A stretch of DNA of 64,000 bases from a virus (lineage: Duplodnaviria > Caudoviricetes), in IMG/VR virus record IMGVR_UViG_3300031134_000001, positions 192,001 to 256,000 of that record. One strand, written 5' to 3'. The position numbers and the translations under genes were made by a program. The notes beneath the pieces were generated by a model. The model searched no databases and was not told the DNA's origin. It worked only from the letters and a program-made list of their open reading frames with translations. The stretch's first letter is position 1. The number at the start of each line of letters is the position of its first letter. Shown here in pieces: positions 4,771 through 50,933 of the stretch.

Positions 4771-4844
4771 TGGCAAGACACTATTTACTTAAGAGGACGG
4801 GCTTAGGCTCGCCCTCTTGCTATGCCGTCTTAATTTTTCACGAC

Positions 4845-4852
4845 TATATCAC
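4845..4852 (+). promoter_or_regulatory. putative early (virion RNAP) promoter TATATCAC
   Basis: Matches the phiKZ early consensus TATATTAC at 7 of 8 positions; T-rich/CACG context shared with the other copies. Confidence 0.65.
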
Positions 4853-30348: not shown

Positions 30349-30373
30349 CAAGGGGATTGACCATCCCCTTTTT
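30349..30373 (+). terminator. rho-independent terminator
   Basis: AAGGGGAT/ATCCCCTT plus T-tract. Confidence 0.7.
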
Positions 30374-30407
30374 TTGTACCTATAATTAACAACTAAAAGG
30401 AATTCAT

Positions 30408-31273: not shown

Positions 31274-31311
31274 CGTCCCTAGCCCTCCATTACGGGGGGC
31301 TAGGTATGCCG
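31268..31311 (+). terminator. GCATA-hairpin-TATGCCG element
   Basis: CCTAGCCCTCC/GGGGGGCTAGG stem. Confidence 0.75.
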
Positions 31312-31343
31312 TCTTAGTTCTAACCACCAAAAGGAAAAGCATC

Positions 31344-31725: not shown

Positions 31726-32445
31726 ATGGCAAAAAAGAAAGCTACTACCGCAGTCCAAGAGCCAATCAAATCGCAGATGGGTGACATCATTGCCATCTGT
31801 TTGACGCCTAAGAAAGAAACCAACGAAGAAAGTGAAACGGGGACCAATGTCGCCGTGGCGCGCATCGGGGAAGTGCTCCGAGCGACCAACGCCTACGAGA
31901 CGATCGATGTCATCAATATCAAAGACGTTGACCTGAACGCGCCACTCATCTACGCCGAGAAAGATGGCGACAAAGAAATGCAGGAGTACGTCAGCACCGG
32001 CGAAGGCAAAGTCACCATGGCGTTGGTAATGAACCAATACAAGCGTGATCGCGATCGTGGCGACATCGAAGAGAAGGACCGCTTCATCGCCATGGGTGAA
32101 GAAGCCATCAAGACCGAAGATGAAGCGCGCCGTAAGCATCTGCGCGAAGCCATCCTGGAGGCGAACAACGCTGCTGACAAGCGCCGTGCTGAAGCGGTGC
32201 TGCATGCGTTCGACGTGGCCAACCGCTGGTCGACTGCGCCAGAACTCACGCCACGTGAACGGGTCCATGGCGCTACGCGCGAACTGTACCACCACTACGG
32301 CCCAACCCAAGCCCGTGATGAGCATGGTCGCTTTGTCCATGTGGAAGCGGGGCCTGAGTACGACGCCCACTACGAAGCGCACTTCGCGGAAGACATCAAG
32401 TTCCGCTCGATCCGCGCTGCCAAAGATTTGTTCGGAGGTAAATAA
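31726..32445 (+). CDS. DLF-tail array protein 1
   Basis: Ends KFRSIRAAKDLFGGK. Confidence 0.85.
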   Translation: MAKKKATTAVQEPIKSQMGDIIAICLTPKKETNEESETGTNVAVARIGEVLRATNAYETIDVINIKDVDLNAPLIYAEKDGDKEMQEYVSTGEGKVTMALVMNQYKRDRDRGDIEEKDRFIAMGEEAIKTEDEARRKHLREAILEANNAADKRRAEAVLHAFDVANRWSTAPELTPRERVHGATRELYHHYGPTQARDEHGRFVHVEAGPEYDAHYEAHFAEDIKFRSIRAAKDLFGGK

Positions 32446-33131
32446 TGGCTGAGGAAAAAGACATCGATCCACCAGTCGGCACCGTCGTTACCATCATGGG
32501 GATGCCGATCGGTAAATCCCCAGAAAGCGTGATGCGCGCCATCAACGATATCTCGGAAGCAGCACTGGGCCACTTCACCAAAGTCGAGGTAGCTCACCTT
32601 CCCAATGTTCCTCTTTTTACCGCTGAGGTTGTCAAAAATAACCCTGACGAACTTGACAACGAATACCTGGCTACGCCGGTAGGTCGTGCGGCTTCCACTG
32701 TGTTTGCTGGCAGTATGCGAACTCTGGATGACCTTGAAGACAAAAAGGAAGAAGCTCGCTTGGCCACGATGTCGCCAGAAGAAATCGAAGCGGAAGAGGA
32801 GCGACTCGATGCATGGGCTAAGAACTTGAAAGAAGAAGCTCGCGCCAACACGCTGAAAGAAATCCGGCAAGGGGTTATTGAATCCTACGAAATCGCTGAG
32901 AAGTGGGCGATCACGCCTAACGTCACAGCGCGTGAAGTGGCCCACGGCGTGGCGCATGACATGCATGCCCATTTGGCTTACGATTATGGCAAGCCGGGCG
33001 AGTACCGTCCAGAGCGGACTTACCCAACGCCATCCCAAAATTACCAGTCGTACTACACGGAACAGCTGGCTGATGAAATCAAGGCGCGTTCTATCCGTGC
33101 AGCGAAAGACCTTTTTGGAGAAGGCCGATGA
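32445..33131 (+). CDS. DLF-tail array protein 2
   Basis: Ends KARSIRAAKDLFGEGR. Confidence 0.85.
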   Translation: MAEEKDIDPPVGTVVTIMGMPIGKSPESVMRAINDISEAALGHFTKVEVAHLPNVPLFTAEVVKNNPDELDNEYLATPVGRAASTVFAGSMRTLDDLEDKKEEARLATMSPEEIEAEEERLDAWAKNLKEEARANTLKEIRQGVIESYEIAEKWAITPNVTAREVAHGVAHDMHAHLAYDYGKPGEYRPERTYPTPSQNYQSYYTEQLADEIKARSIRAAKDLFGEGR

Positions 33132-33805
33132 GTAAAGAAGAACCTAACCGCGATTGGAATGCGGAACATCGCGAAATCAATGAAAAAGGGCATCAAGATC
33201 TCGCGCGTCTTTATATCAAGGACGCGAACAAGCGTAAGGACGATATGTTCTTCGATGGTCAACCCATCGATTCGCCTAACCGCTTGGCAGCTCGCGCGAT
33301 CATCGCGCTGGTGGGGGATCGCACGAATGCGGATTTTCTTGATCTGCATCAGCATGGCCGTAGCGAAATAACTAACATCGCTGTCGAGATCATCGGACAA
33401 GTCAACGCTCAGCAAGTGGCTGACTCCATTTACGAAAGGGTCCAAGTCGTGGATGCGCCTAAAGATAAACCCAACCCAACGCCAAGCAAGTTGGACCAAG
33501 CCATGGAAAACATGCAGTACACGTTTTCTGAACTGTCAATGGCGCGGCGCGATGATGAATTGCGCGAAGTCATGACCGCCGCAGTTAACTGGGGCAATCG
33601 CGATGACCTGTCGCCGATGGAGCGTTGTCAAGGGTTGGCACATGAGCTCTATAGCGAGTGGGGTACCGATACCGTGATGACCGCCGACGGCACTACGGTA
33701 CCCACCAGCCCTGGGCTTAACTACGCTCGCATGTACGAGCATGGCTTTGCCGAAGAAATCAAGGCGCGCTCGATGCGGGCTGCTAAGGATTTGTTCGGCT
33801 CGTAA
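33128..33805 (+). CDS. DLF-tail array protein 3
   Basis: Ends KARSMRAAKDLFGS. Confidence 0.85.
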   Translation: MSKEEPNRDWNAEHREINEKGHQDLARLYIKDANKRKDDMFFDGQPIDSPNRLAARAIIALVGDRTNADFLDLHQHGRSEITNIAVEIIGQVNAQQVADSIYERVQVVDAPKDKPNPTPSKLDQAMENMQYTFSELSMARRDDELREVMTAAVNWGNRDDLSPMERCQGLAHELYSEWGTDTVMTADGTTVPTSPGLNYARMYEHGFAEEIKARSMRAAKDLFGS

Positions 33806-33814
33806 AGGAGAATC

Positions 33815-34990
33815 ATGGCAAACAACTACCAGGACATAGTTGGTCAAATTTATCTTGAAAAGATGACCCCCGTTATCGCAGCTCTTTTCAAGACCTACAA
33901 CCTTAACCCTCACTCTAACTATCCAGGCAATGGCGCCTACGGCATCTGGTGTGGCGAATTGGTCGGCAACGACTATCCGACGTGGGATAGCTTTGCAGAG
34001 TCGCTGAGAGAACTCTGTCAGCAACTTAACATTGTCGTTGATGATGGAAACATCGAAGAAGAAAACGAGTTTTACGCTTACTTACTGAAACTCCTCTTTA
34101 CCTTCTTTGGCGCTATCGATAAAGAAGATGCGAAAGCATATATCGAAATAGCGAGAACGTGCGATTCATACGACTTCGTCGAACTGCGTTATCTGTTTAA
34201 CATCGCCCAACTCATGAACGACGGACATGGCTTAAAGCGCTATGAAGTTGACAGCGCGTTTTACTGCTCCAAACCGCGTCACCAAGAGTTTGGTGGTTAT
34301 GGCGAATACCACAGCCACCATGTCCATTCATTTGAAGGTTCAATCCAGGCTTGTTTGTTTGGCGCCGCTTTAGAAGAAGATTTGCTGGCTAAGCGCTACG
34401 ACGCCGCTGCAGCGCGTATCGTCGACAAAACCGCACGCTCACTCAACTGCATCACCAACCCAGAAGACCGTCAGAAAGTTCAAAGTCTGGTCGTGAAGGA
34501 AATGAATACCCTACACACGCCCATTCCGCAAGGTCAACCCGCCAGCAACGAACCTACTATCAACCCCTACGACATCGACGCAATCATCGACGCGCCTGTG
34601 GTACAAATGACACATAGTGAGCAGCGCTCGGAAATCGCGGGTGCTATTTACAACATCGCGCGGGAGTGGGCGGATAAGCCGGCACACTTCGATCCATACG
34701 AACGGGTGCATGGCGCGCTCTGCAGCTTCATCAGTCTGCTCGAAGACGGTAATGGTGAAACTGTACCACCCATGCAGTTGTATCCGATTCCTGCAAGCCA
34801 CAAAAGTTACGACACCTCGGTTTTCCGAGAAGGTCCAGAATGGCAAGTCGGGCAATGGCGCTTTAATCAGCCTATCCCGATGTACGAAACAAATAACCCA
34901 CAACACAGTTTGTTGAACGAATTCATCACCACTGCGGAGACTCTGGAACGTCGACGAATCGAAGCGGCTAAGAAAATGTTCGGCACCTAG
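33815..34990 (+). CDS. DLF-tail array protein 4
   Basis: Ends ERRRIEAAKKMFGT; N-terminal half resembles an ICE-type hypothetical domain (recollection). Confidence 0.85.
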   Translation: MANNYQDIVGQIYLEKMTPVIAALFKTYNLNPHSNYPGNGAYGIWCGELVGNDYPTWDSFAESLRELCQQLNIVVDDGNIEEENEFYAYLLKLLFTFFGAIDKEDAKAYIEIARTCDSYDFVELRYLFNIAQLMNDGHGLKRYEVDSAFYCSKPRHQEFGGYGEYHSHHVHSFEGSIQACLFGAALEEDLLAKRYDAAAARIVDKTARSLNCITNPEDRQKVQSLVVKEMNTLHTPIPQGQPASNEPTINPYDIDAIIDAPVVQMTHSEQRSEIAGAIYNIAREWADKPAHFDPYERVHGALCSFISLLEDGNGETVPPMQLYPIPASHKSYDTSVFREGPEWQVGQWRFNQPIPMYETNNPQHSLLNEFITTAETLERRRIEAAKKMFGT

Positions 34991-35002
34991 AAAGGCAACA
35001 CC

Positions 35003-35389
35003 ATGGACCACGACAAGATGCAACACCGTCGTTTCTTTACAGATGCAGCGTATCGCGCAGTGACTGAAGCGACGGCCGATAGCTTTGTAAAGGCAATGCA
35101 AGACTATAGCGCGCTGCCCGTCAACGAAGAGGACTACGCTGGGGATAAAGCCAAAGATTACTTCCCTGCGGTTGATGCCGCAGACATCGCGGCTGGAGCT
35201 ATTCTTTCTGAATTGTCTCATCGTCTCGACTTCCATTACGAAGTCGACCACCATGGTAACCACGACATGAATGACATGGTGGCGTCGATTATTCGCAAGA
35301 GCATGGCGCCTGCTACCGTAGAGCCGCCTGAGGCCACGTTTGAATCGATCGACATTCGTGCGCTGCTCGACGATACTAACAAGTCGTAG
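35003..35389 (+). CDS. array protein 5 (N-terminal module only, no tail)
   Basis: Aligns with the N-terminal half of 35403..36191 (RRFFTD/RRYFTD; AADIAAGAILSEL/QADLAAEAVLSQL). Confidence 0.8.
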   Translation: MDHDKMQHRRFFTDAAYRAVTEATADSFVKAMQDYSALPVNEEDYAGDKAKDYFPAVDAADIAAGAILSELSHRLDFHYEVDHHGNHDMNDMVASIIRKSMAPATVEPPEATFESIDIRALLDDTNKS

Positions 35390-35402
35390 AAGGGAAATCC
35401 AA

Positions 35403-36191
35403 ATGGAAGATAAGAAACAATCGCGGCGGTACTTTACTGACAAAAACTATCGTCATCAAATCCAAGAAGCCGCTTACGCCGATGTAGAGCGTTCTAAAAT
35501 CTTCATGGGGGAAGATCTCGATAAAGGCACCGAACATTACCATCCCATCGTTGACCAAGCTGACTTAGCGGCCGAAGCGGTCCTCAGTCAGCTGAGTGAT
35601 CGCAGTGGTATTCAACTTGATTTCGACCCTGAAACGAATCACGAAATCGCTGACACTCTGGCAGAAATCATTCGCCACAGCATGGCTGCCCAAGTCTACG
35701 AGCGTCCTCCGCTGGACTACACGCCGTTCGTTTACCACGATGAAAAGTGGCCGTTCTTCGACGACAACGAAATTCGCTCCGAAGGCGGGACGTACACACC
35801 CCACGAAGTGCGTCAGCAGCTGTTTAACCGCATGATCGACAAAGCGATGACGTGCGGTCAAGAGGAAGGCAACTACACGCCAACTGAACGCTGCATGCGG
35901 ACGGTGCACGGCGTCATCGGTTTGATCGATGGCAAAGGTGGTAATCGTTCGGATGGTAAAGGTCTGCCGGTCATGCAACTGATGATCTGCCCAAGCCCCG
36001 AGTATTCGGAAGAACGTGCCCGTAAAGGGCTGCCGTTGTATGACAACAGCGTACCGCTTGACTGCGGATTGCCCGCACCTGACTATGAGACCGGGCTGAC
36101 ACGGGCATTCGAAGACCACTACACCAGTCGGTTTGAAACGTCCATTCGCGCCCGGCAACTGCGCGCAGCGAAGGATCTCTTTGGGAGCTAA
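35403..36191 (+). CDS. DLF-tail array protein 6
   Basis: Ends RARQLRAAKDLFGS. Confidence 0.85.
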   Translation: MEDKKQSRRYFTDKNYRHQIQEAAYADVERSKIFMGEDLDKGTEHYHPIVDQADLAAEAVLSQLSDRSGIQLDFDPETNHEIADTLAEIIRHSMAAQVYERPPLDYTPFVYHDEKWPFFDDNEIRSEGGTYTPHEVRQQLFNRMIDKAMTCGQEEGNYTPTERCMRTVHGVIGLIDGKGGNRSDGKGLPVMQLMICPSPEYSEERARKGLPLYDNSVPLDCGLPAPDYETGLTRAFEDHYTSRFETSIRARQLRAAKDLFGS

Positions 36192-36192
36192 C

Positions 36193-36621
36193 ATGGACAC
36201 AAGCATGATGGAGCGTGTCACTCAATTTCACGCACGCGTCGAAGCGCTGTCTGCTTTGTTTGATTGGGACGTGTTGGGCGATCTAGCTGCCGAATACATC
36301 GAGTACGTCGGTAAGATGGAAAGCATGACGGTGGATGAAGCGATCGCTGAACTCACGCGGTGGGCTGTTAAGAAGCAGGAAAAGCGGCGCTCGATAGAAC
36401 AGCGACGCTATTTCAAAATGGCGCAGCATGTAGCAGCGCAGCACCTTACTCTACCAGAAGCCTGTCACTTCATGGCCAAGCATTTCTACGTCATGCACCA
36501 TCAAGTCAAAGGAGCGCCTGAAATCATTTCGCAAGAATACAATGCGTTGTACGATCGTACGTATTCTGACGCCATCAACGCCCGCCAGGCGCGTGCTGCA
36601 AAAGATCTTTTCGGGGGGTAA
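36193..36621 (+). CDS. DLF-tail array protein 7
   Basis: Ends NARQARAAKDLFGG. Confidence 0.85.
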   Translation: MDTSMMERVTQFHARVEALSALFDWDVLGDLAAEYIEYVGKMESMTVDEAIAELTRWAVKKQEKRRSIEQRRYFKMAQHVAAQHLTLPEACHFMAKHFYVMHHQVKGAPEIISQEYNALYDRTYSDAINARQARAAKDLFGG

Positions 36622-36624
36622 GTA

Positions 36625-37404
36625 ATGTTTCAATACGAACAACCTGCGCAATTAAGCGGCGTTAGCCGAATCGTGTCGGACTCGGATTATGGTAACGAAT
36701 GCGTAATGCGTGTGGAGCATGGCGCCGAAGTACGTTTCCCACCTTACCCAATCTCTTGCGGCTACGTGCGTGTGGTAAAGAACGGCAATGAGATCGGCTA
36801 CTGGGATGCACAAGAATGGATGGAGGCGCCGGAAGAAGTCATGGGTGCGATCATGGGCGCTGCGATGAGTGGTGATCATGCTGCACATACAGCAACTCTA
36901 TCTGAAGAAGTCGCTGGCGAAATCAAAGAAGGTTTGGCTGCACACGGCATGGTGGATGCCCAGCCATTGGCCAAACTGCGTCCTTACGAACAGATCCAAA
37001 CTCTGGCCGATGTGACGCATCAGGTGGCTGCGCATTGGGCGTACCGTGACGATCCTGATCTCGGTGTGGAAGAACGTGTCATGGGCGCAGTACACGGCGT
37101 GCTGGACGTACTGCAAAACGGCTTGATCGAACGGTTACCAGCATTTCAACTCGTACCCATCGATCCTGAAACGGACGAAGGTTGCGTGCAATGGGTGAAC
37201 CGTAATCAGAAAGATGTCGTGGCGGCAGATTGGAACTATGGCGTTCCCTTCGATTTGTCAGTACGTGCTACACCTGAGATGGGTCCTGCTGGTGCGCTTC
37301 TGGGAAAGAGCCCGCCCTCATCGCTCACTTACCGTTTCGAAGAGCACTACGAAAACATGCGTAGCCGGTTCCGTACGTCGGCGGAGGATCTTTTCGGAGG
37401 CTAG
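36625..37404 (+). CDS. DLF-tail array protein 8
   Basis: Ends RSRFRTSAEDLFGG. Confidence 0.85.
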   Translation: MFQYEQPAQLSGVSRIVSDSDYGNECVMRVEHGAEVRFPPYPISCGYVRVVKNGNEIGYWDAQEWMEAPEEVMGAIMGAAMSGDHAAHTATLSEEVAGEIKEGLAAHGMVDAQPLAKLRPYEQIQTLADVTHQVAAHWAYRDDPDLGVEERVMGAVHGVLDVLQNGLIERLPAFQLVPIDPETDEGCVQWVNRNQKDVVAADWNYGVPFDLSVRATPEMGPAGALLGKSPPSSLTYRFEEHYENMRSRFRTSAEDLFGG

Positions 37405-37965
37405 ATGTCGAAGGAAGACAGTGAGGTGTTGGGTTGGTACGCTCAGCACGTCATGACAAACAACCCAGAGTTCTTTGGCACTCCCGAGAGCTGGGACCCT
37501 AAATTAAGAAGGGGGGCTGATATGGCCAAGAAATCGTTGAGTATTAACGATGTCGGCAACGTGTACGAAATGCCGGCACTTACCAAGGAGGAAATGCTTA
37601 CCATCATCGCACAACGAGCTTATAACAGGGCGTTATTGTCGTGGGGTGAGGGCGTAACTAACGCGCGCTTGACGATCAACGATCGGGTGCTGGGGGCTGT
37701 ATACTCAACATTCGAATTGCTTCAAGAGGGCAGAGAAGGGCTGATGCCGCCAATGGAGCTGGTGCCGCATGTTAGTGAAGACATAGTGGTTCATATAGAG
37801 CGCGAAGGGCATGAAGTTGCCTGTTGCTGGCCAGAAGACCCAGTTCTCTTGGCACCAGACACGCGCGACGCCACCAGCATGACTGCGGTGTTCTCTACCG
37901 TTTACGATCGCTATAAAGACCGCTTGGCTGCGTCTGCTAGAGATCTTTTCCAAACTTACGAATAG
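37405..37965 (+). CDS. DLF-tail array protein 9
   Basis: Ends DRLAASARDLFQTYE. Confidence 0.85.
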   Translation: MSKEDSEVLGWYAQHVMTNNPEFFGTPESWDPKLRRGADMAKKSLSINDVGNVYEMPALTKEEMLTIIAQRAYNRALLSWGEGVTNARLTINDRVLGAVYSTFELLQEGREGLMPPMELVPHVSEDIVVHIEREGHEVACCWPEDPVLLAPDTRDATSMTAVFSTVYDRYKDRLAASARDLFQTYE

Positions 37966-37973
37966 GCGTTACT

Positions 37974-38843
37974 ATGCCACGTGATGAAGGGTTCTATAAC
38001 CCATCCCAACATTTCAGCCCAGCGATCCAGTATCAGCTCAACCAAGAGCAGATCAAAGAACTGATCGAAAGCACAGCCATCGCTGCAGCGCAAAAGGTAC
38101 TGCAAGCAAACGGCTACGGCAACCCTTACGAACAACCAGCAGTCGACCCGAACGCACCGCGCGCCTACACCAGGGAAGAAGTCACCGAGCAGATCCTTGA
38201 AGGCGTTGTAAGGAATGTGCGGTACTGGCAAAAGCAGCCTAACTGTGGCACGATGGAACACCGAGTCGAGGGCGTGGCGTTTTCCATTCTCTCCATGTTG
38301 GACGGCTCGACCCTGGATTTGCCAGCCTTCAATCTCTCGCCTGATCCGGCGGAAGACGACATGAACTACCATATCGAAGAAGGAGAAAATTACTACGATC
38401 CCGATACGGTGATCTCTACGTCGCTCCATGAACTGTTTCATCCAACGATGAAGCGGTTGTACCCAGATACGAAGCATCCAGAAGGCTACAGCGAACTCTC
38501 GCCAGAGGAAATGCGCGAACAGTTTACTGGCATGATATCGCGCATGGTGGATGTGGCTGGGACTTCTTCGGCCGACAAACTCGAAGCGTGTGAACGTCTG
38601 GGGCGCGATGTGTTGCTGGTACTGGACGGTAAGTACTCGCCGTACATGCCAGGCTTCATGTTGTTTGCGGCGCCCACCCAGGACTTCAATGCCCGAGAAA
38701 TCAAAGAAGGGCGTAAAGCCTGGGGCAATCATATCCCCCTGAACCGTCAGGAACCCACGTACGGCATGACCGATTCCTTGGTGGACGCGTACGACACCAT
38801 CCGCGGGCGTAGCGCTAGAGCTGCGCGTGACATGTTTAAATAA
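37974..38843 (+). CDS. DLF-tail array protein 10 (two core modules)
   Basis: Ends GRSARAARDMFK. Confidence 0.85.
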   Translation: MPRDEGFYNPSQHFSPAIQYQLNQEQIKELIESTAIAAAQKVLQANGYGNPYEQPAVDPNAPRAYTREEVTEQILEGVVRNVRYWQKQPNCGTMEHRVEGVAFSILSMLDGSTLDLPAFNLSPDPAEDDMNYHIEEGENYYDPDTVISTSLHELFHPTMKRLYPDTKHPEGYSELSPEEMREQFTGMISRMVDVAGTSSADKLEACERLGRDVLLVLDGKYSPYMPGFMLFAAPTQDFNAREIKEGRKAWGNHIPLNRQEPTYGMTDSLVDAYDTIRGRSARAARDMFK

Positions 38844-39354: not shown

Positions 39355-39933
39355 ATGTCCATTGCCATCTATCGCCATTTGAAACTGTCAGTCGCTGTCC
39401 CGATCCACCGTGAACCCAACGTTGTACAGCTGTCACGCCGCAAGGTACATGATTTTTGTCTGGACCAAGATGCTGAAGGCGGTTGGGTAGGGTCGATTGA
39501 ATTTAGTACCATAGCACGCCGCTTGGCTCGACTTAACGTCTACAAACAACTGTGGCAAATCAAAAACGGTCAGCTGTTGATCACCCACCGCACTTACTGC
39601 AACGGCTCTTTGCGTTCGGTTACGACACCGGCTTTAATCGCACCAGCCTTAACCACGGTCTGGACATTAAACAACGACGTGGCCTCGATCAGCAAACAGT
39701 TCGCTGAGGAACAAATCACCAGTCGTGTTGCAATCGAGCGTTATCTGCATGACCATACGCCGAATCCATTTGACTTTAAGATTATCGTCATGGACTTTGA
39801 TCCTAACAAACAACTCATGGGTCGACCTTATTACACCACGTACTTGGTTCGCACTCGCGATAAAGTTGAAAGGATGGCGACCTTTGACCACAGTGAGGAT
39901 TCTAACGCATGGGCAAAACTATTTCTAACGTAG
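39355..39933 (+). CDS. hypothetical protein
   Basis: 192 aa ORF. Confidence 0.7.
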   Translation: MSIAIYRHLKLSVAVPIHREPNVVQLSRRKVHDFCLDQDAEGGWVGSIEFSTIARRLARLNVYKQLWQIKNGQLLITHRTYCNGSLRSVTTPALIAPALTTVWTLNNDVASISKQFAEEQITSRVAIERYLHDHTPNPFDFKIIVMDFDPNKQLMGRPYYTTYLVRTRDKVERMATFDHSEDSNAWAKLFLT

Positions 39934-40331
39934 TTGAAAACTTGCTGGTCATGGATATTGGCGACATTCTCGATGACTTGCAAAAAGAGTTACAACGCAT
40001 CGGCATTCGCTCTGTGTGTGAAGATTGGCACAAAGGTCCCATTGAATCGTTCCTCTACGAGATCTTCACCGAGGTTGGGTACTTGCCCGATGGCGAACGC
40101 CGAGTAGCGTATAACGTCACTGACGTGTTAGATACGAGCGGCCAGTACTTTGATCGCGGCGACATGTGCTCATACGAACGCATTCAGTGGATGATCACCG
40201 TCCAGCGCTTAATCAACCGGTTCGTGGAATACCGTTTGTACGGCAAAGACCACGTGCACGTCTACGACTTCTTCGCTTACGAGAACAACACGCTTTACTT
40301 ACAACATCACGCAGACAATCATGGCGACTAA
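39909..40331 (+). CDS. hypothetical protein, LY-x-x-x-G paralog family
   Basis: VEYRLYGKDHVHVYDF. Confidence 0.75.
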   Translation: MGKTISNVVENLLVMDIGDILDDLQKELQRIGIRSVCEDWHKGPIESFLYEIFTEVGYLPDGERRVAYNVTDVLDTSGQYFDRGDMCSYERIQWMITVQRLINRFVEYRLYGKDHVHVYDFFAYENNTLYLQHHADNHGD

Positions 40332-40770
40332 CCAACAACAATACACCATCGACATTTACGAAGCCGTGGAGCGCTTTAACGGTTACCATCAAGCGTATGC
40401 TAACCTCGCAGTACCGGCGGCGCTACACCGCGAATACATCGACATGCTCATCGAGCAAATGATCGCGCACTTTGAAGTCGAGCGCACCGCAGTGCAGATG
40501 TTTGTCGGTCACTACACCCAGCTCATCACCGACCACTCCATCTCCCCACGCTTCAAATACCATCCGCTGAACTTCCTGCGGCAGATGGATAACGAGGGCT
40601 ACCGCAACTATATCTACTGCCTGTACGGTTTTGCTGAAGACATGTTCAAGATCTTCCAGGCGCATCAGTTCTACAATAGCCGCGGTATTTTGCTCGCTAG
40701 CTTTCAGCATATCAACGGGAACAATCTGTATCTCGTTGTCAGACCGGAGGTACCTGATGTCTTCCATTAA
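40321..40770 (+). CDS. hypothetical protein, LY-x-x-x-G paralog family
   Basis: QAHQFYNSRGILLASF. Confidence 0.8.
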   Translation: MATNQQQYTIDIYEAVERFNGYHQAYANLAVPAALHREYIDMLIEQMIAHFEVERTAVQMFVGHYTQLITDHSISPRFKYHPLNFLRQMDNEGYRNYIYCLYGFAEDMFKIFQAHQFYNSRGILLASFQHINGNNLYLVVRPEVPDVFH

Positions 40771-41257
40771 CGACAAAACTAGCTTTGCACCAGAGCCTCT
40801 GTATCCAGGAGATTACTACCTGGTCGATTGCGCCGAACCTATCAGTCGCTTCATGCAAACGCCGTACAACGTACGCATGCACATGGCGTCTGATTCAGAA
40901 GAGATGACTGAGTACGACATGGTTGATGTGGAGCTCACTGAACTGGTGGATGCTCTGGTGATGCGTAACCCAGTGGACCATCTGGACAACCACGCGGACC
41001 AGCTGTTAGAAGAAGGTACGAACGTTCTGCGTGAAGAAGCCATCATGCAAGGCATTCACAAAGAAGGTCAGGTCTATACCAACACACCAGTACAAACCCA
41101 ACACGCTGATGCTGTACTACAGCTCGGGTTTGATTTGTCACGACTCTTAAAGCAGTACGGGTTCTATCATGCAACGGGAATGTTGGCAGTAAAGTACCAT
41201 CAGTTACTGCCCAATGGATTGGTCGTATTTAGAAAAGAACCCACGCCGTATTACTAA
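40757..41257 (+). CDS. hypothetical protein, LY-x-x-x-G paralog family
   Basis: GGAGG RBS; KQYGFYHATGMLAVKY. Confidence 0.8.
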   Translation: MSSINDKTSFAPEPLYPGDYYLVDCAEPISRFMQTPYNVRMHMASDSEEMTEYDMVDVELTELVDALVMRNPVDHLDNHADQLLEEGTNVLREEAIMQGIHKEGQVYTNTPVQTQHADAVLQLGFDLSRLLKQYGFYHATGMLAVKYHQLLPNGLVVFRKEPTPYY

Positions 41258-41289
41258 ATACCACCATCTTATGTAAACAATGTTCCCCT

Positions 41290-41640
41290 AGCGTGACTTA
41301 CCGTGTAGCGTTAAGGTTAAAATGTGTCACCAGGCCCCAGCAGAGCCAACTTCGGGATAAACTCACTCAGTCGAATGAGGTTGGGGCGAAACAGGTGGTA
41401 AACGGTACGGGCCTTCTTCACAGAGCCAAGCTGTCATTAGGAATTTTCGGTCGAGCGCTGACGCGCGATTATTCGAGTGTGCAACGGCAACCCAGATTGG
41501 ATGATAGTCCTTCGTACTGCGAAGTCACGTTATCTAGTAAGGGTTGTCGGTGCGTAGGTTTCATGTGCCTACAAACTTCTTCGCGGCGCAGGTGCCGGGG
41601 TAGAGTTTTGCGACATGATGCTGTTTTCCTAAGTTTTTCT
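41290..41640 (+). ncRNA. candidate large structured ncRNA (copy B)
   Basis: Intergenic ~480 nt; helices GCCCCAGC/GTTGGGGC and CGGCAACCC/GGGTTGTCG; 8-bp long-range CGTGACTT/AAGTCACG pairing. Confidence 0.55.
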
Positions 41641-41643
41641 TTA

Positions 41644-41681
41644 GCACAGGAGCCTTCGGGTTCCTGTGTCTTTTTATGCCG
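41644..41681 (+). terminator. hairpin-TATGCCG element
   Basis: CACAGGAGCC-TTCG-GGTTCCTGTG then TCTTTTTATGCCG. Confidence 0.8.
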
Positions 41682-41743
41682 TCAATTCTTTTTTTGGTTA
41701 ATTCTTATGAGTCAACCCCTCGATAACCCTTACAGAGAACACC

Positions 41744-43186
41744 ATGCGAAAGTTTTCCTACGCAGCGCCTGTCGTAAAACTTCAACTGTCAGCTGAAGAA
41801 GAAGCCATTCAAATTGACGAAAGCAATCAGTCGGCACATGAGCTCGAACAAACCAGTGCAGACATCGACCGTCTCGGCGATATCGTCGTTACCGTCAACG
41901 AAGTGCAAACTGTCGTTAGTAATACACCAGAGATTCAACCGATCGATGCAGCGCTTACTGGCGCCGTTGGTGAAATGGCTGTAGCTGGCACCGATATCGC
42001 ACCTGACGATATCATCGAAGAGATGCTTCCCAGTGAAAATGTGAGCACTGAAAGCTTTGTGGCTGCTGCCAAAGAAAAGCTCGCCGCAATGTGGAAAGCC
42101 ATCAAAGAGTTCTTCGCTAAGATGTGGAAGCATGTCAAAGATTTCTTTGGCGTCGGTAAAAAGAAAGCCGAGAAGCTCGAAGAAAAGCAAAAGAAAACGG
42201 ACGAAAGCTACGCTCATTTGAAAGGCTTAGGCATTCATAACGAAAATGACTACAATGCCTTTGTGCGTGAAGTCGAAAAAGCAATAGACGCAGACGCTAA
42301 AAAAGCGGACAAGATTCCCACGTTCCATTTCTACAATCAAAATTCGAAGTTGTGTTTGGGCGATTCCACAAAACCACTTCCACCCCGCCAGTTGGTCGTT
42401 GAGTTGCAACATCTGCTCAAAGAAGGCGAACACATGTACAAGTCGTTTTGCGATGGCGTACTAAAGTTGCTCGACTACCTCGCCAACACTGTCGAACAAT
42501 GTTTGAAAGACCCAGAGCGCGCGGGTGATACGTATAAAGACATGCGTGAAGGCTATCAAAAGATTGCCGATAAGCTGTTCCTTGATCTGAAATTCCATAA
42601 CGGCACCACGCCTGGTCCGTTGCTGGGTGACCTTCATTTGGCAGTAATGAGTTATACACCGGGTGAAGAAAGAGGCACCATGTGGTCGCCGCGTATTCAC
42701 CTACCATTTACGATGGGAGGCGGCGCCGATGAAATTCAAGAACCGGTAATGTTATCGGATGGCGTCAAGTTAAGCGAGAATGTCCATGCCTGGATCAGGT
42801 TGACTAAAGGATTCTTCGGTCAAGAAATGGTCGAGAAGATCCAGCAGAAAAGCCAAAAGGTCGAAAGCCTTATCGAGCAGCTCATTAAGCATCGGCCAAC
42901 CGACGCCGAACTGCGTGGGGAGCACGTAGGCAAAGATGAAGACCCAATCGTCAAATATGCCGCAGGCGTGAGTAAGTTTGGGATCGATATAGCAATCGAG
43001 CGGCTGGCTTATGAATCTAAAGAGTTGGTCACTATGGGTGTGACGGCCGCTGTGAAACTGCCACAACGGATTCATCAGATCTTTGAAGTGGCAGCTGATT
43101 ACGCTGAAGCGTCGTCGATGTATCTGTTGAAGCACGGTATCGTTGGTGACGCTGCTGAAGCTGATTTTCAAAACAAATTGAAATAA
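41744..43186 (+). CDS. inner head protein, phiKZ gp93/95/97-like paralog family
   Basis: Acidic propeptide ending VSTES (S-x-E protease site) followed by the helix AAMWKAIKEFFAKMWKHVKDFF. Confidence 0.7.
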   Translation: MRKFSYAAPVVKLQLSAEEEAIQIDESNQSAHELEQTSADIDRLGDIVVTVNEVQTVVSNTPEIQPIDAALTGAVGEMAVAGTDIAPDDIIEEMLPSENVSTESFVAAAKEKLAAMWKAIKEFFAKMWKHVKDFFGVGKKKAEKLEEKQKKTDESYAHLKGLGIHNENDYNAFVREVEKAIDADAKKADKIPTFHFYNQNSKLCLGDSTKPLPPRQLVVELQHLLKEGEHMYKSFCDGVLKLLDYLANTVEQCLKDPERAGDTYKDMREGYQKIADKLFLDLKFHNGTTPGPLLGDLHLAVMSYTPGEERGTMWSPRIHLPFTMGGGADEIQEPVMLSDGVKLSENVHAWIRLTKGFFGQEMVEKIQQKSQKVESLIEQLIKHRPTDAELRGEHVGKDEDPIVKYAAGVSKFGIDIAIERLAYESKELVTMGVTAAVKLPQRIHQIFEVAADYAEASSMYLLKHGIVGDAAEADFQNKLK

Positions 43187-48737: not shown

Positions 48738-50933
48738 ATGAAAAGCATCATCTTTAACAACGCTGCGGACGCCCGTGGCCTGAGCGGTTTCCTGACCAAA
48801 GCACTCGACCACGTCGACACCTTCGCTCATTCGAGCGCCGGCAAGACCGTGAGCAAAGGCCTGCTGTCGATCGAATCGATCGCTGGTAACGTGCACGAAG
48901 TCAACACCCTGAAAACCGCCGCCAGCGAACTGCTGAACCACATCGAAACGTTCGCTGCCGAATCGTTCGGCTTGAACGACAAAAACGGCAAGCTGCAACA
49001 CGACTACAACAAAAACCAGCTGCAAGCTGCGACGATCGCCGCCATGCTGGGTCACGACCTGGGCGCTGCTGTCAAGGCACCAACCAAGCCAACGTTCTCG
49101 ACCGAAGGCATCGCTGTCTGCGAAGTCGGCGACCGTACCCCGTTCGAACGCCGCGCTGCGAACGAAGCATACGACGAACAATCGACCTCGACCTCGGTCG
49201 CGTTCTCGATCGCCTACAACCTCGAATGCGCACGTCAATCGGAACTGGCTGAAACGCTCTTCCCGACCGTCGTGATCCCGCCAAACGAGTCCGGCCTGTT
49301 CATGTCGATCGACCTGGCCCTGCTGCAAGACGATGCGAACCGCCAGATCAGCGGCGCCATCACGAACTTCCACCGCTACAACGTCATCCGTGCCCAGACC
49401 TACCCGGAACTGCTGCACAACGACGCATCGGACCTGGTCCCAGTGCTGCGCGACGAAAGCGTCCAGAACTTCGTGTCGGATGCTCTGGTTCAGCCGGTCA
49501 CCCGCAAAATGCACAACGGTGAAGAAATCACCACCAACGCCCTGAAAATCGGCGCCAAGTTCGACCTGCTGGCCCTGTCGCACACCGACTCGATGGTTGC
49601 CAAAGGTATGGCCAACCAGACCGACTCGATCGACACCGGCGTGTTCCTGGAAACCATCCTGATCGCGCTGAAATCGGCCGACGGCACCAAGACCGAAGTC
49701 ATCCGCTTCAACGTCAAAGAACTGCCATACGCCAGCTACTACCCAGCGAGCCAGGGCGACTACCGCGACCAACAACTGTCGTTCGACAACAGCGATCTGC
49801 TGGTCTCGGAAAAGACCGTCACGGCCGACGGCGGCGTCTCGACCCTGCTGGAACCAATCCGCACTGGCAAGTACGAAGTGCGCATCTCGGTGTCGCTGGC
49901 TGGTCGTCTGAACCTGCAATTCGGTAACGGTTCGGTCTACGGTCCTGCACCGGAAGTCGCAACCCTGTCGAAGAACGCACAACAAGTGTCGATCACCGGC
50001 GGCGCCGGCAAAACCATCGCCGACATCTTCAAGGGCGCCGAGATCATCGGTTACACCCTGGCAGCCAAGCGTTCGAACCTGAACCGTCGTCTGCGTGGCC
50101 AGACCATGGACACCAACACCAAGAAGCAGTTCTACCCACTGAACCTTCTGGCACCGGTCACCATCGTTCGTCCACACAGCGCCGGCGACGTCAACGACGC
50201 ACGCGACCTGTCGTTCCTGATCTTCACCACGAAGACCCGTTCGTCGATCGACGCCATCGAAGTTCTGCAATCGCACTGCGCGACCATGAAGTCGATGCAA
50301 GGCCAATACCACCGTCCTGGTGAAACGGTCGAAACCTTCGGCCTGGCCCGTTGGTTGCTGGACCCGTACTACGGCTACGACAAGTACGTCGCCCCACAAG
50401 TCGTCGACTCGCTGAAGTCGTCGGAGCGTAACGCGGACATCCGTGCTTCGCTGACCAACATGGTCCAGGATCACGTGTTCAAGATGTGGCAACTGTCGAG
50501 CTACGGCCCGGCATCGGCATCGCAAAACGGTGGCGTCGGTCAGATCCCGACCGTCATCATTGCCTGCGATCCACGCATCGAGCAATACCTGAACATCCAG
50601 GGCGACCTGCGTCTGCTGGGCGACAAGTTCCCAGTCAAGGTCGTGTCGGACACGAACATCAAGCTGCGTGGCAAGATGTACATCACGTTCGGCAACATGG
50701 AAACCGCTGCGCAAGGCATCCCGAATGTCCTGCACTTCGGCACCACCATGTATCGTCCGGAAATGACGATCATCCTGCCAGTGTCGCGCGATGGCCAGAC
50801 CTCGAAAGAAGTCACCGTGTCGCCGGCGTTCCGCCACTTCGTCAACCTGCCACTGATCGTCGAGATCGACGTGGAAGGCATCGAAGATGTCGTCAACGCC
50901 AAAGTGCCTGTCGTTCTGAAGGAACTGCCGTAA
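48738..50933 (+). CDS. major capsid protein, phiKZ gp120-like
   Basis: 731 aa; EAYDE...AFSIAYN, ETLFPTVVIPP, IACDPRIEQYL, PAFRHFVNLP; extreme codon bias; S/A-x-E sites in the N-terminus. Confidence 0.9.
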   Translation: MKSIIFNNAADARGLSGFLTKALDHVDTFAHSSAGKTVSKGLLSIESIAGNVHEVNTLKTAASELLNHIETFAAESFGLNDKNGKLQHDYNKNQLQAATIAAMLGHDLGAAVKAPTKPTFSTEGIAVCEVGDRTPFERRAANEAYDEQSTSTSVAFSIAYNLECARQSELAETLFPTVVIPPNESGLFMSIDLALLQDDANRQISGAITNFHRYNVIRAQTYPELLHNDASDLVPVLRDESVQNFVSDALVQPVTRKMHNGEEITTNALKIGAKFDLLALSHTDSMVAKGMANQTDSIDTGVFLETILIALKSADGTKTEVIRFNVKELPYASYYPASQGDYRDQQLSFDNSDLLVSEKTVTADGGVSTLLEPIRTGKYEVRISVSLAGRLNLQFGNGSVYGPAPEVATLSKNAQQVSITGGAGKTIADIFKGAEIIGYTLAAKRSNLNRRLRGQTMDTNTKKQFYPLNLLAPVTIVRPHSAGDVNDARDLSFLIFTTKTRSSIDAIEVLQSHCATMKSMQGQYHRPGETVETFGLARWLLDPYYGYDKYVAPQVVDSLKSSERNADIRASLTNMVQDHVFKMWQLSSYGPASASQNGGVGQIPTVIIACDPRIEQYLNIQGDLRLLGDKFPVKVVSDTNIKLRGKMYITFGNMETAAQGIPNVLHFGTTMYRPEMTIILPVSRDGQTSKEVTVSPAFRHFVNLPLIVEIDVEGIEDVVNAKVPVVLKELP

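Follow-up and report, generated by a model that had tools for sequence, protein, structure and literature searches.

The window considered here is a stretch of 64,000 nucleotides (bases 192001-256000 of the complete 271,026-bp virus record IMGVR_UViG_3300031134_000001, which has direct terminal repeats) and comes from an uncultured jumbo phage. Between 31726 and 38843 it carries an array of ten genes, g1 to g10, all on the + strand and arranged head to tail. In nine of the ten, the encoded protein ends in R-x-x-R-[AS]-A-[KR]-D-[LM]-F, hereafter the tail. We consider this tail, the shared domain that it closes and the varied parts fused ahead of that domain. The genes of the array are listed below, with protein lengths from ATG starts unless another start is given.

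31726..32445, + strand: g1, 239 residues; shared domain 155-239 (short type); tail RSIRAAKDLFGGK, nt 32401-32442
32445..33131, + strand: g2, 228 residues; shared domain 140-228 (short type); tail RSIRAAKDLFGEGR; 1-nt overlap with the g1 stop
33128..33805, + strand: g3, 225 residues; shared domain 144-225 (short type); tail RSMRAAKDLFGS; 4-nt ATGA overlap with g2
33815..34990, + strand: g4, 391 residues; residues 1-~240 homologous to plasmid proteins; shared domain 265-391; tail RRIEAAKKMFGT
35003..35389, + strand: g5, 128 residues; neither shared domain nor tail; paralog of the N-terminal part of g6
35403..36191, + strand: g6, 262 residues from ATG (283 from an upstream TTG); shared domain 131-262 (long type); tail RQLRAAKDLFGS
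36193..36621, + strand: g7, 142 residues; shared domain 45-142 (short type); tail RQARAAKDLFGG
36625..37404, + strand: g8, 259 residues; small domain homologous to megaplasmid proteins at residues ~20-83; shared domain 118-259; tail RFRTSAEDLFGG
37405..37965, + strand: g9, 186 residues; shared domain 59-186; tail RLAASARDLFQTYE; the protein used for modelling
37974..38843, + strand: g10, 289 residues; two cores, 65-163 (ancestral type, tail-less) and 175-289 (tail RSARAARDMFK)

The tails and their conservation

In a six-frame scan of the whole 271,026-bp genome, [AS]A[KRE][DK][LM]F occurs exactly nine times, once per tailed gene, and each time 1-4 residues ahead of the stop of the adjacent array gene. 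Since all the matches in the genome lie near the stops of these nine genes, occurrence of the motif by chance is excluded. An earlier description of the array, made by inspection of the DNA and its reading frames and referred to here as the sequence-only reading, had given nine tail sequences, all of which read exactly as written. It had also held that the tail codons differ synonymously between copies and that selection acts on the peptide (the two codon strings that it quoted are those of g1 and g6), and the codon statistics bear this out. Between copies, the 11 tail codons are 66% identical at positions 1 and 2 and 31% identical at position 3, and different codons are used in 149 of the 230 codon pairs that specify an identical residue (65%). 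The constraint therefore acts on the peptide. The size range proposed for the tailed proteins, 142-391 residues, holds with ATG starts.

The array is closely packed, with junctions that run from a 4-nt overlap up to a 13-nt gap, in agreement with the translational coupling proposed for many of its genes. In five of nine cases, the Gly codons 3' of the tail Phe also serve the following gene as its Shine-Dalgarno sequence (GGAGG, GGAGAAGG, GGGAG, GGGGGG and GGAGG). In a distant relative with tailed genes spaced 127-136 nt apart, the residue after the tail Phe is D or S. Because of this and of the Shine-Dalgarno overlap, the terminal G or GG is partly a by-product at the DNA level. The endings after the Phe vary, with LFK, LFD, LFS and LFQTYE also occurring, and GG is not conserved. 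All ten array proteins are acidic (isoelectric point, pI, 4.6-6.4), while in eight of the nine with a tail the final 15 residues carry a net positive charge.

The sequence-only reading had suggested looking for the motif in other jumbo phages. In IMG/VR, RAAKD[LF]FG stands at the C-terminus of proteins solely in the clade of uncultured jumbo phages to which this one belongs; the other matches are internal and unrelated. All the tailed relatives that were traced come from that clade, with the following numbers of genes.

L002/L052: 8 tailed genes
L003: 10 tailed genes
L054: at least 5 tailed genes
L025: 3 tailed genes on a 2-kb contig
L026: a contig of 169 kb, more distantly related, with 3 tailed genes at the same syntenic position

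The array is a lineage-specific expansion, with about three copies in the distant relative and 8-10 in this clade. Sequences of the array lineage recur in phyllosphere, straw, dairy and food-production metagenomes. Compared with their closest counterparts in L002 and L003, the proteins of the window show 57-86% identity over the last 14 residues, 25-60% over the remainder of the domain and 15-62% in the N-terminal parts. No other segment evolves as slowly as the tail, among paralogs and orthologs alike.

The shared domain and its predicted structure

What the nine tailed proteins have in common is not the tail alone. Alignments A1 and A3 show a shared C-terminal domain of 82-142 residues with the pattern (Y/L)T-x-EE ... 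A-x-x-W ... ER-x-x-G ... [LDG ... P-x-F-x-L-x-P ... W-x-x-x-P] ... F-x-x-x-Y ... R-x-R-x-x-x-A-A-K-D-L-F. The five proteins g4, g6, g8, g9 and g10 have the loop and hairpin given in brackets, which g1, g2, g3 and g7 lack. The combined profile A4 has nine matches in the genome, none of them outside the array. Those in g4, g6, g8, g9 and each of the two copies of g10 are strong, those in g1-g3 are weak, and g7 has none. No further copy of the core domain was found in the genome outside the array by this profile.

Pfam, PHROGs and NCBIfam assign none of the ten array proteins to a named family. The sole matches are two PHROGs of unknown function, phrog_29367 (E 1.6e-13) and phrog_27353 (E 1.5e-8), both on residues 61-158 of g10; the long-type domains of g4, g6, g8 and g9, taken alone, have no match in PHROGs that reaches E 1. 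Likewise, the array had no match among 50,697 phage records by megablast or tblastn, hmmsearch of the domain profile against the PDB gave nothing below E 0.3, and no description of the tailed array was found in the searchable literature. Against 1.84 billion cluster representatives, the same profile gave 1122 matches at E<=0.001 and 150 at E<=1e-10. The 150 matches listed are mostly phage proteins of ~100-130 residues that are tail-less and end ~2-12 residues past LHE-x-[FWY]. By a motif check, the tail is present in roughly one third of these 150, and the extension is absent in about 95 of them. Two tandem cores are found in many database relatives, and ten larger core-bearing database proteins showed no informative fusion partner in Pfam. 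Two motifs conserved in the free-standing proteins, PH..DK.Y and LHE-x-[FWY](H), are found within the array only in the N-terminal copy of g10. Because they have been lost in the tailed copies, we consider the tailed domains a derived subfamily. By sequence relationship, the shared domain derives from a widespread phage protein of ~100 residues, of the phrog_29367/27353 type, that has no tail.

Examples of the core-only family include a Skatevirus gene, isolated between the lysis and head genes, RP12 ORF183, and gp257 and gp258 of phiKZ. The two phiKZ genes are adjacent (L065, NC_004629, 245091-246196) and encode 228 and 124 residues with matches to A4 at E 6e-21 and E 4e-9, respectively, which makes them a tractable model for the ancestral domain. 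The matches to 'gp257' in the literature concern PhiPA3 gp257, a DNA ligase, and not phiKZ gp257. Many free-standing core proteins (e.g. P0059, P0078, P0149, P0150 and P0159) end in LHE-x-x-H, an HExxH-like string with a conserved PH..DK upstream. The second His of that string is not conserved across the family, which speaks against a metalloprotease reading.

A first structural model, of g10 with 11 sequences, had a predicted local distance difference test score (pLDDT) of 63 and was too weak for use. The AlphaFold 2 (AF2) model of g9, made with the 124-row alignment A4, has a mean pLDDT of 85.8 and is above 90 across 59-186. It is composed of helices at 61-81, 91-108 and 159-182, an extended P-x-F-x-L-x-P segment and a beta-hairpin at 129-140. 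The tail falls inside the terminal helix 159-182 (pLDDT about 90), and it makes up the last 12-15 residues of this predicted closing helix of the shared domain. In a comparison of 58 tailed domains, only the terminal Phe is invariant (58/58, with 4.75 bits, the highest information); R173 (48/58), A177, A178, K179, D180 and L181 are highly conserved too. Within the helix, F163, Y167, I170, A177/A178, L181 and F182 form a single hydrophobic stripe with i+3/i+4 spacing, and on a helical wheel of the model, R173, K/R179 and D180 would lie on faces other than the stripe. The sequence-only reading had set against itself the case of a tail that is just the last structural helix of the domain, with no binding or localisation activity of its own. 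The model comes close to that case, since the tail ends a confidently predicted helix and the stripe continues through it.

The fold itself led to no relative. With Foldseek, the g9 model gave a best E of 2.2 in the PDB and 0.22 in the AFDB clusters, and only uncharacterised phage proteins in BFVD. The wide VIA-align search gave a best Z of 5.9, to generic helical bundles, and the Atlas template modelling (TM) scores were <=0.33, so none of these searches gave a convincing match. The sole alignments that span residues 59-185 are to generic three-helix bundles at Z about 5.

Modelled as a homodimer, g9 has an interface score (ipSAE) of 0.80 against 0.12 for the best control. By a rough count made with a custom alignment, that mark is reached by 20 of 30 proteins whose solved structure is a pair of one and the same chain and by 1 of 23 whose solved structure is a single chain. 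The confident interface comprises residues 56-170, and residues 171-186 lie outside it. As the predicted interface does not include the tail, there would be room for an external partner. The tandem duplication of the core, seen in g10 and in many database relatives, is what an ancestral dimer would lead one to expect, and together with the dimer model it suggests that the ancestral unit of ~100 residues was a dimerisation unit, with the tail an appendage beyond it. On the strength of these models, the module appears to dimerise, and it is likely that the tail is part of a folded dimeric domain. The proposal of the sequence-only reading, a common tag for one receptor, is partly supported, in that a conserved tail lies outside the predicted dimer interface. 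It is not supported as an independent linear tag, and no receptor has been identified.

Front parts, operon and genome context

The sequence-only reading had also described the N-terminal parts as varied, and this is correct. By BLASTP they are mostly unrelated to one another, and the shared module is fused to at least six unrelated front parts. The relationship between g5 and the N-terminal part of g6 is 40% identity over 106 residues (E 4e-17, BLASTP). Two of the front parts have plasmid relatives. For residues 1-~240 of g4 (nt 33815-34606), tblastn finds full-length matches to hypothetical plasmid proteins at 28-33% identity and E to 2e-27. These relatives are whole proteins of ~225 residues on large, mostly conjugative plasmids of Cupriavidus, Enterobacter and Aromatoleum. 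An Atlas model of the same part superimposes on Pseudomonadota proteins of ~230 residues with a TM score of 0.79-0.80 by query and 0.88-0.92 by hit. The surroundings of the g4 relatives on the plasmids consist of small accessory genes. In one case a Lar restriction-alleviation gene adjoins, and in a second STY4534, DUF3275, DUF932 and DUF6094 genes of integrative and conjugative elements (ICEs) are nearby. For residues ~20-83 of g8 (nt 36682-36873), the tblastn matches are to plasmid proteins of Pseudomonas, Variovorax and Methylobacter at 37-52% identity, one relative being a portion of a 191-residue protein on a Pseudomonas IncP megaplasmid. The N-terminal part of g8 is only 15% identical to its best L002/L003 counterparts; not being shared with them, it points to a recent swap. 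The N-terminal parts of g3 and g6 had no match among plasmids by tblastn, and family searches found no DNA- or RNA-related domain in any N-terminal part.

The array lies inside a larger transcription unit, of which the flanking features are the following.

30350..30376, + strand: intrinsic-terminator-like hairpin and T-run; 8-bp stem with 4 GC pairs, then TTTTTTTG; upstream border of the ~11-kb operon
31281..31313, + strand: GC-rich hairpin, then TATGCCGTC; candidate late-type promoter (for the non-virion RNA polymerase, nvRNAP) or processing element, 31 nt 5' of gene 31344 and the array
39355..39933, + strand: conserved basic protein, 192 residues, pI 9.3; downstream of the last tailed gene in all related loci (L002, L003, L024 and L026)
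41644..41683, + strand: strong terminator with an 11-bp stem and T-run (41644-41669), then TATGCCGTC at 41675; end of the operon and start of the phiKZ_IP unit
41744..43186, + strand: phiKZ_IP (PF12699) internal head protein, 480 residues; Pfam 33.1 bits against a 27-bit cut-off; downstream neighbour of the operon

The terminators at 30350-30376 and 41644-41669 bound the ~11-kb unit that holds the array. Its other genes are conserved in the relatives and have no family match in PHROGs or Pfam, and this includes the 192-residue basic protein. The latter is directly 3' of the last tailed gene in L003, L024 and L026 and is separated from the array by one small open reading frame in the window and in L002. 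It is followed by three small consecutive genes (39909-40331, 40321-40770 and ~40763-41257) that seem to be mutual paralogs and are kept in L002 and L003. Their C-terminal regions read ...LYL..., ...LYLVVRPEVPDVFH and ...GLVVFRKEP..., and they have no family match. The operon ends in a non-coding gap of 410 nt (41272-41681) that closes in the strong terminator.

There are two recurrent intergenic elements in the genome. The first, TTCTAAA...CTATATCACT, is ~30 nt long and has 13 genome copies, all on the + strand, of which those in the window are at 4845, 6936, 15396 and 51409. It stands directly 5' of the nuclear-shell gene, the RNA polymerase (RNAP) beta gene and gene 51488, which adjoins a polymerase-type gene. 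It matches the 'well-conserved extended consensus' described for phiKZ early promoters (PMC4666361) and is probably the early (virion RNAP) promoter of the phage. The second is a GC-rich hairpin with TATG[CA]CG[TC]C, present in 25 genome copies, with those in the window at 4821, 15117, 25211, 31305, 41675, 43225, 46268 (minus strand) and 51067. The late promoters of phiKZ have a short TATG motif with G at +1 (PMC4666361), which this element matches; its form suggests either a terminator joined to a late TATG start of the phiKZ type or a site of processing. No early-type element was found before the array. The hairpin with TATGCCGTC (31281-31313) lies 5' of it, and the same element lies 5' of the phiKZ_IP gene 41744 and of the helicase operon (46268, minus strand). 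Judged by these elements, the promoter context of the array is late-type rather than early-type.

The genome holds five PF12699 paralogs, including that at 41744-43186, and the order array, phiKZ_IP, SNF2 helicase, DnaB-like gene is kept in L026. It also encodes a chimallin-family nuclear shell protein (genome 86573-88594; phrog_4795, E 3.8e-43) and an RNAP beta subunit (genome 100537-102801; phrog_3295, E 1.5e-167), the RNAP subunits being split. From the shell protein and the split RNAP subunits, we conclude that formation of a phage nucleus is probable. The major capsid protein (48738-50933) is distantly phiKZ-like, with 39% identity to that of Burkholderia phage FLC9 and 28-33% to those of Ralstonia and Pseudomonas jumbo phages. 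Neither a beta-clamp nor a gp45-type clamp was detected in the genome. Gene 13547-15046 matches phrog_3141, a family of unknown function.

Interpretation and known systems

Our preferred explanation, which is tentative, is that the shared module of the array is a dimeric adaptor by which varied domains are brought to a single phage structure, perhaps the inside of the capsid. The module would have two parts. The first is the old phage domain of ~100 residues, in which a helical hairpin is followed by the P-x-F-x-L-x-P loop, the beta-hairpin and the final helix; by prediction, it pairs as a symmetric homodimer. The second is the amphipathic extension of the final helix by 12-15 residues, ending in R-x-x-R-[AS]-A-[KR]-D-[LM]-F, which would remain outside the predicted dimer interface. 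Ahead of these are fused the unrelated acidic N-terminal parts, at least two of them with plasmid homologs. A dimeric module with its two tails could then act as the common adaptor by which different N-terminal domains reach one phage-encoded structure. We infer that the tail forms a conserved interaction surface, and to regard the module as a shared adaptor or assembly element seems nearly as reasonable as not.

As to the destination, our guess is the interior of the procapsid, so that the proteins would be packaged late and ejected with the DNA. This capsid guess is made by analogy with the phiKZ_IP operon, the SPN3US head paralog family B and the internal proteins of T4 and P1, and as a separate claim it is rather doubtful. 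Domains of the plasmid establishment type would profit most from such ready-made delivery. Somewhat less likely still is that the module is a portable address label, with which the fused proteins would be loaded into the procapsid and carried along with the DNA into the next cell, or else would be passed on to the phage nucleus or to the early infection vesicle. The array would then consist of establishment proteins of plasmid or ICE type domesticated as pre-made injected effectors, and the module would be a folded, bivalent, C-terminal counterpart of the T4 capsid targeting sequence (CTS) and of encapsulin loading peptides.

Several results weigh against the adaptor explanation or its capsid destination. 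None of the array proteins matches PF12699 (Pfam, E<=0.1) or a virion family, and a text search of the accessible literature gave no report of phiKZ gp257 or gp258 as virion proteins. The T4 CTS and the propeptides of phiKZ and SPN3US are N-terminal and cleaved (PMC5694885), but the array module is C-terminal. The hairpin with TATG is not specific to structural genes, because it is also found 5' of the replication helicase genes. The array locus appeared in no RNA run in a search of runs. Finally, the hydrophobic stripe F163-Y167-I170-A177/A178-L181-F182 and the three-helix-bundle-like matches over 59-185 fit a tail that packs in cis. Protease-type sites, [SAG]-x-E, are present near the domain boundaries; they are too common to interpret.

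A tail that packs in cis belongs to the main alternative, that the array is an ordinary paralog family in which the tail is a cis-capping helix and each protein acts separately in the cytoplasm, for example in anti-defence or host manipulation. The tail does lie inside a helix predicted with high confidence, the stripe is continuous, the small Ala 177/178 are typical of tight helix packing, and the bundle-type structural alignments run through the tail. Moreover, the core-only relatives are isolated accessory genes in small phages and small genes of unknown function in phiKZ and RP12, and the relatives of the cargo domains sit in plasmid accessory regions. However, the tail outdoes the core of the domain in conservation, both among paralogs and among orthologs, and a capping helix needs no such constraint. 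The conserved charges at R173, K/R179 and D180 are off the hydrophobic stripe, about 95 of the 150 listed relatives persist without the extension, and the tight translational coupling of nine genes suggests joint use. We regard an ordinary paralog family as possible, if on the unlikely side.

Two other arrangements appear improbable. In the first, the dimers of the module would join by their tails into a hetero-oligomeric scaffold, inner-body-like or late, that the N-terminal parts decorate. The dimer model, which passes its controls, leaves the conserved tail outside the interface, the tail is of the same kind in all the paralogs, the translational coupling favours stoichiometric co-production, and the copy number is plastic between phages, as in the known head paralog families. 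On the other hand, g1, g2, g3 and g7 lack the loop and beta-hairpin that supply a large share of the predicted interface. In the second, the module would license import into the chimallin phage nucleus or docking on it. The phage encodes the shell protein and the split RNAP, and the array proteins, made outside the nucleus, have one conserved surface element in common. Nevertheless, the published studies, as far as their accessible text goes, describe a selection that is specific to species and sequence and not a portable linear tag, and the front parts yielded nothing related to DNA or RNA.

It is very unlikely that the tail is a membrane-targeting amphipathic helix or a host-protease degron. 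The C-terminus of E. coli MinD resembles an LFGG ending, LFGG occurs in three of the tails (at the very end in two), and the helix is amphipathic with a net basic end. Still, the nine tails have a mean hydrophobicity of 0.05-0.31 and a lipid-binding discriminant of 0.07-1.27, below the usual 1.34. The GG is not conserved and overlaps the ribosome-binding site of the next gene, and no known C-terminal degron pattern is present. Least credible is the sliding clamp that the sequence-only reading had listed among its candidate receptors: a D-L-F followed by a few residues gives a superficial likeness to the clamp-binding consensus QL[SD]LF or to the T4 C-terminal type, but positions 1-2 of the motif are A/S and K/R and not Q and L, the motif is within a predicted helix and not a flexible peptide, the phage has no detectable clamp, and nine acidic proteins with plasmid-type domains are unlikely clients of a replisome. 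Membrane targeting and clamp binding are therefore both disfavoured.

How chimallivirus-type jumbo phages sort their hundreds of proteins to the capsid, the early infection vesicle or the nucleus is, to our knowledge, largely unexplained, and we know of no portable signal that has been defined. The array is a natural experiment on this, in that one conserved and probably dimeric module, its terminal helix under unusual constraint, is carried on many front parts, in 3 to 10 copies among related phages. Should the module be an address label, it would provide a sorting rule that is open to test and a means to load giant capsids with cargo. Should it prove otherwise, what is gained is still a large, unnamed family of phage domains, with 1122 cluster representatives and a predicted dimeric fold without a match among known folds, together with a clear case of the capture of plasmid domains by a phage.

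Among known systems, the closest in sequence are the phrog_29367/27353 proteins (phiKZ gp257/gp258, RP12 ORF183 and the Skatevirus 'seszw' gene 74), in which the core is homologous to the array domains. The signature common to the family is YT-x-EE...W...ER-x-x-G...LDG...P-x-F-x-L-x-P...G-x-N-Y...aromatic helix, and the N-terminal copy of g10 is a typical member. Unlike the array genes, these are usually single genes without the R..RAAKDLF extension, the array arrangement or large N-terminal fusions.

The phiKZ_IP (PF12699) inner-body operons of phiKZ, Goslar and SPN3US (family A) resemble the array in being tandem paralogs of varying copy number in chimallivirus-type phages, and the array adjoins a PF12699 gene, both units having the late-type element. 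PF12699 paralogs are packaged and injected (Goslar preprint). They differ from the array proteins in that their N-terminal propeptides are cut by the prohead protease, whereas the conserved element of the array is C-terminal, and there is no sequence relationship. The SPN3US head paralog family B (gp83, gp138-154, gp161 and gp237) consists of tandem head proteins of unknown function (PMC5694885). Like the array, it is a long tandem run of diverged paralogs with common motifs at the extreme C-terminus. In SPN3US (L029, JN641803 118000-160000), gp145, 148, 151 and 160 end in ...NGELDGF[KQV], with gp151 stopping at the F, and gp146, 147, 149, 150, 152 and 153 end in ...ELV[E/LP]. The motifs are different from that of the array and the proteins are larger. 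Homology of the two was rejected, the best E being 0.06 in an A3/A4 hmmsearch against 14 translated members. Head paralog families of jumbo phages may more generally have common motifs at the extreme C-terminus.

The cargo-loading peptides of encapsulins are short C-terminal tags on flexible linkers that load unrelated cargo into an HK97-fold shell. The T4 CTS and the encapsulin tags resemble the array tail in being one short terminal element common to unrelated cargo. They differ from it in that the CTS is N-terminal and cleaved and the encapsulin tags are flexible, whereas the tail is predicted to be the end of a folded, probably dimeric domain, and there is no sequence similarity. Tandem paralog families in jumbo phages are thus already known, as is the core domain, which is in PHROGs without a name. 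What is new is the tailed subfamily and its array, the predicted dimeric fold without a known relative, and the fusion of plasmid-related domains to a common C-terminal module.

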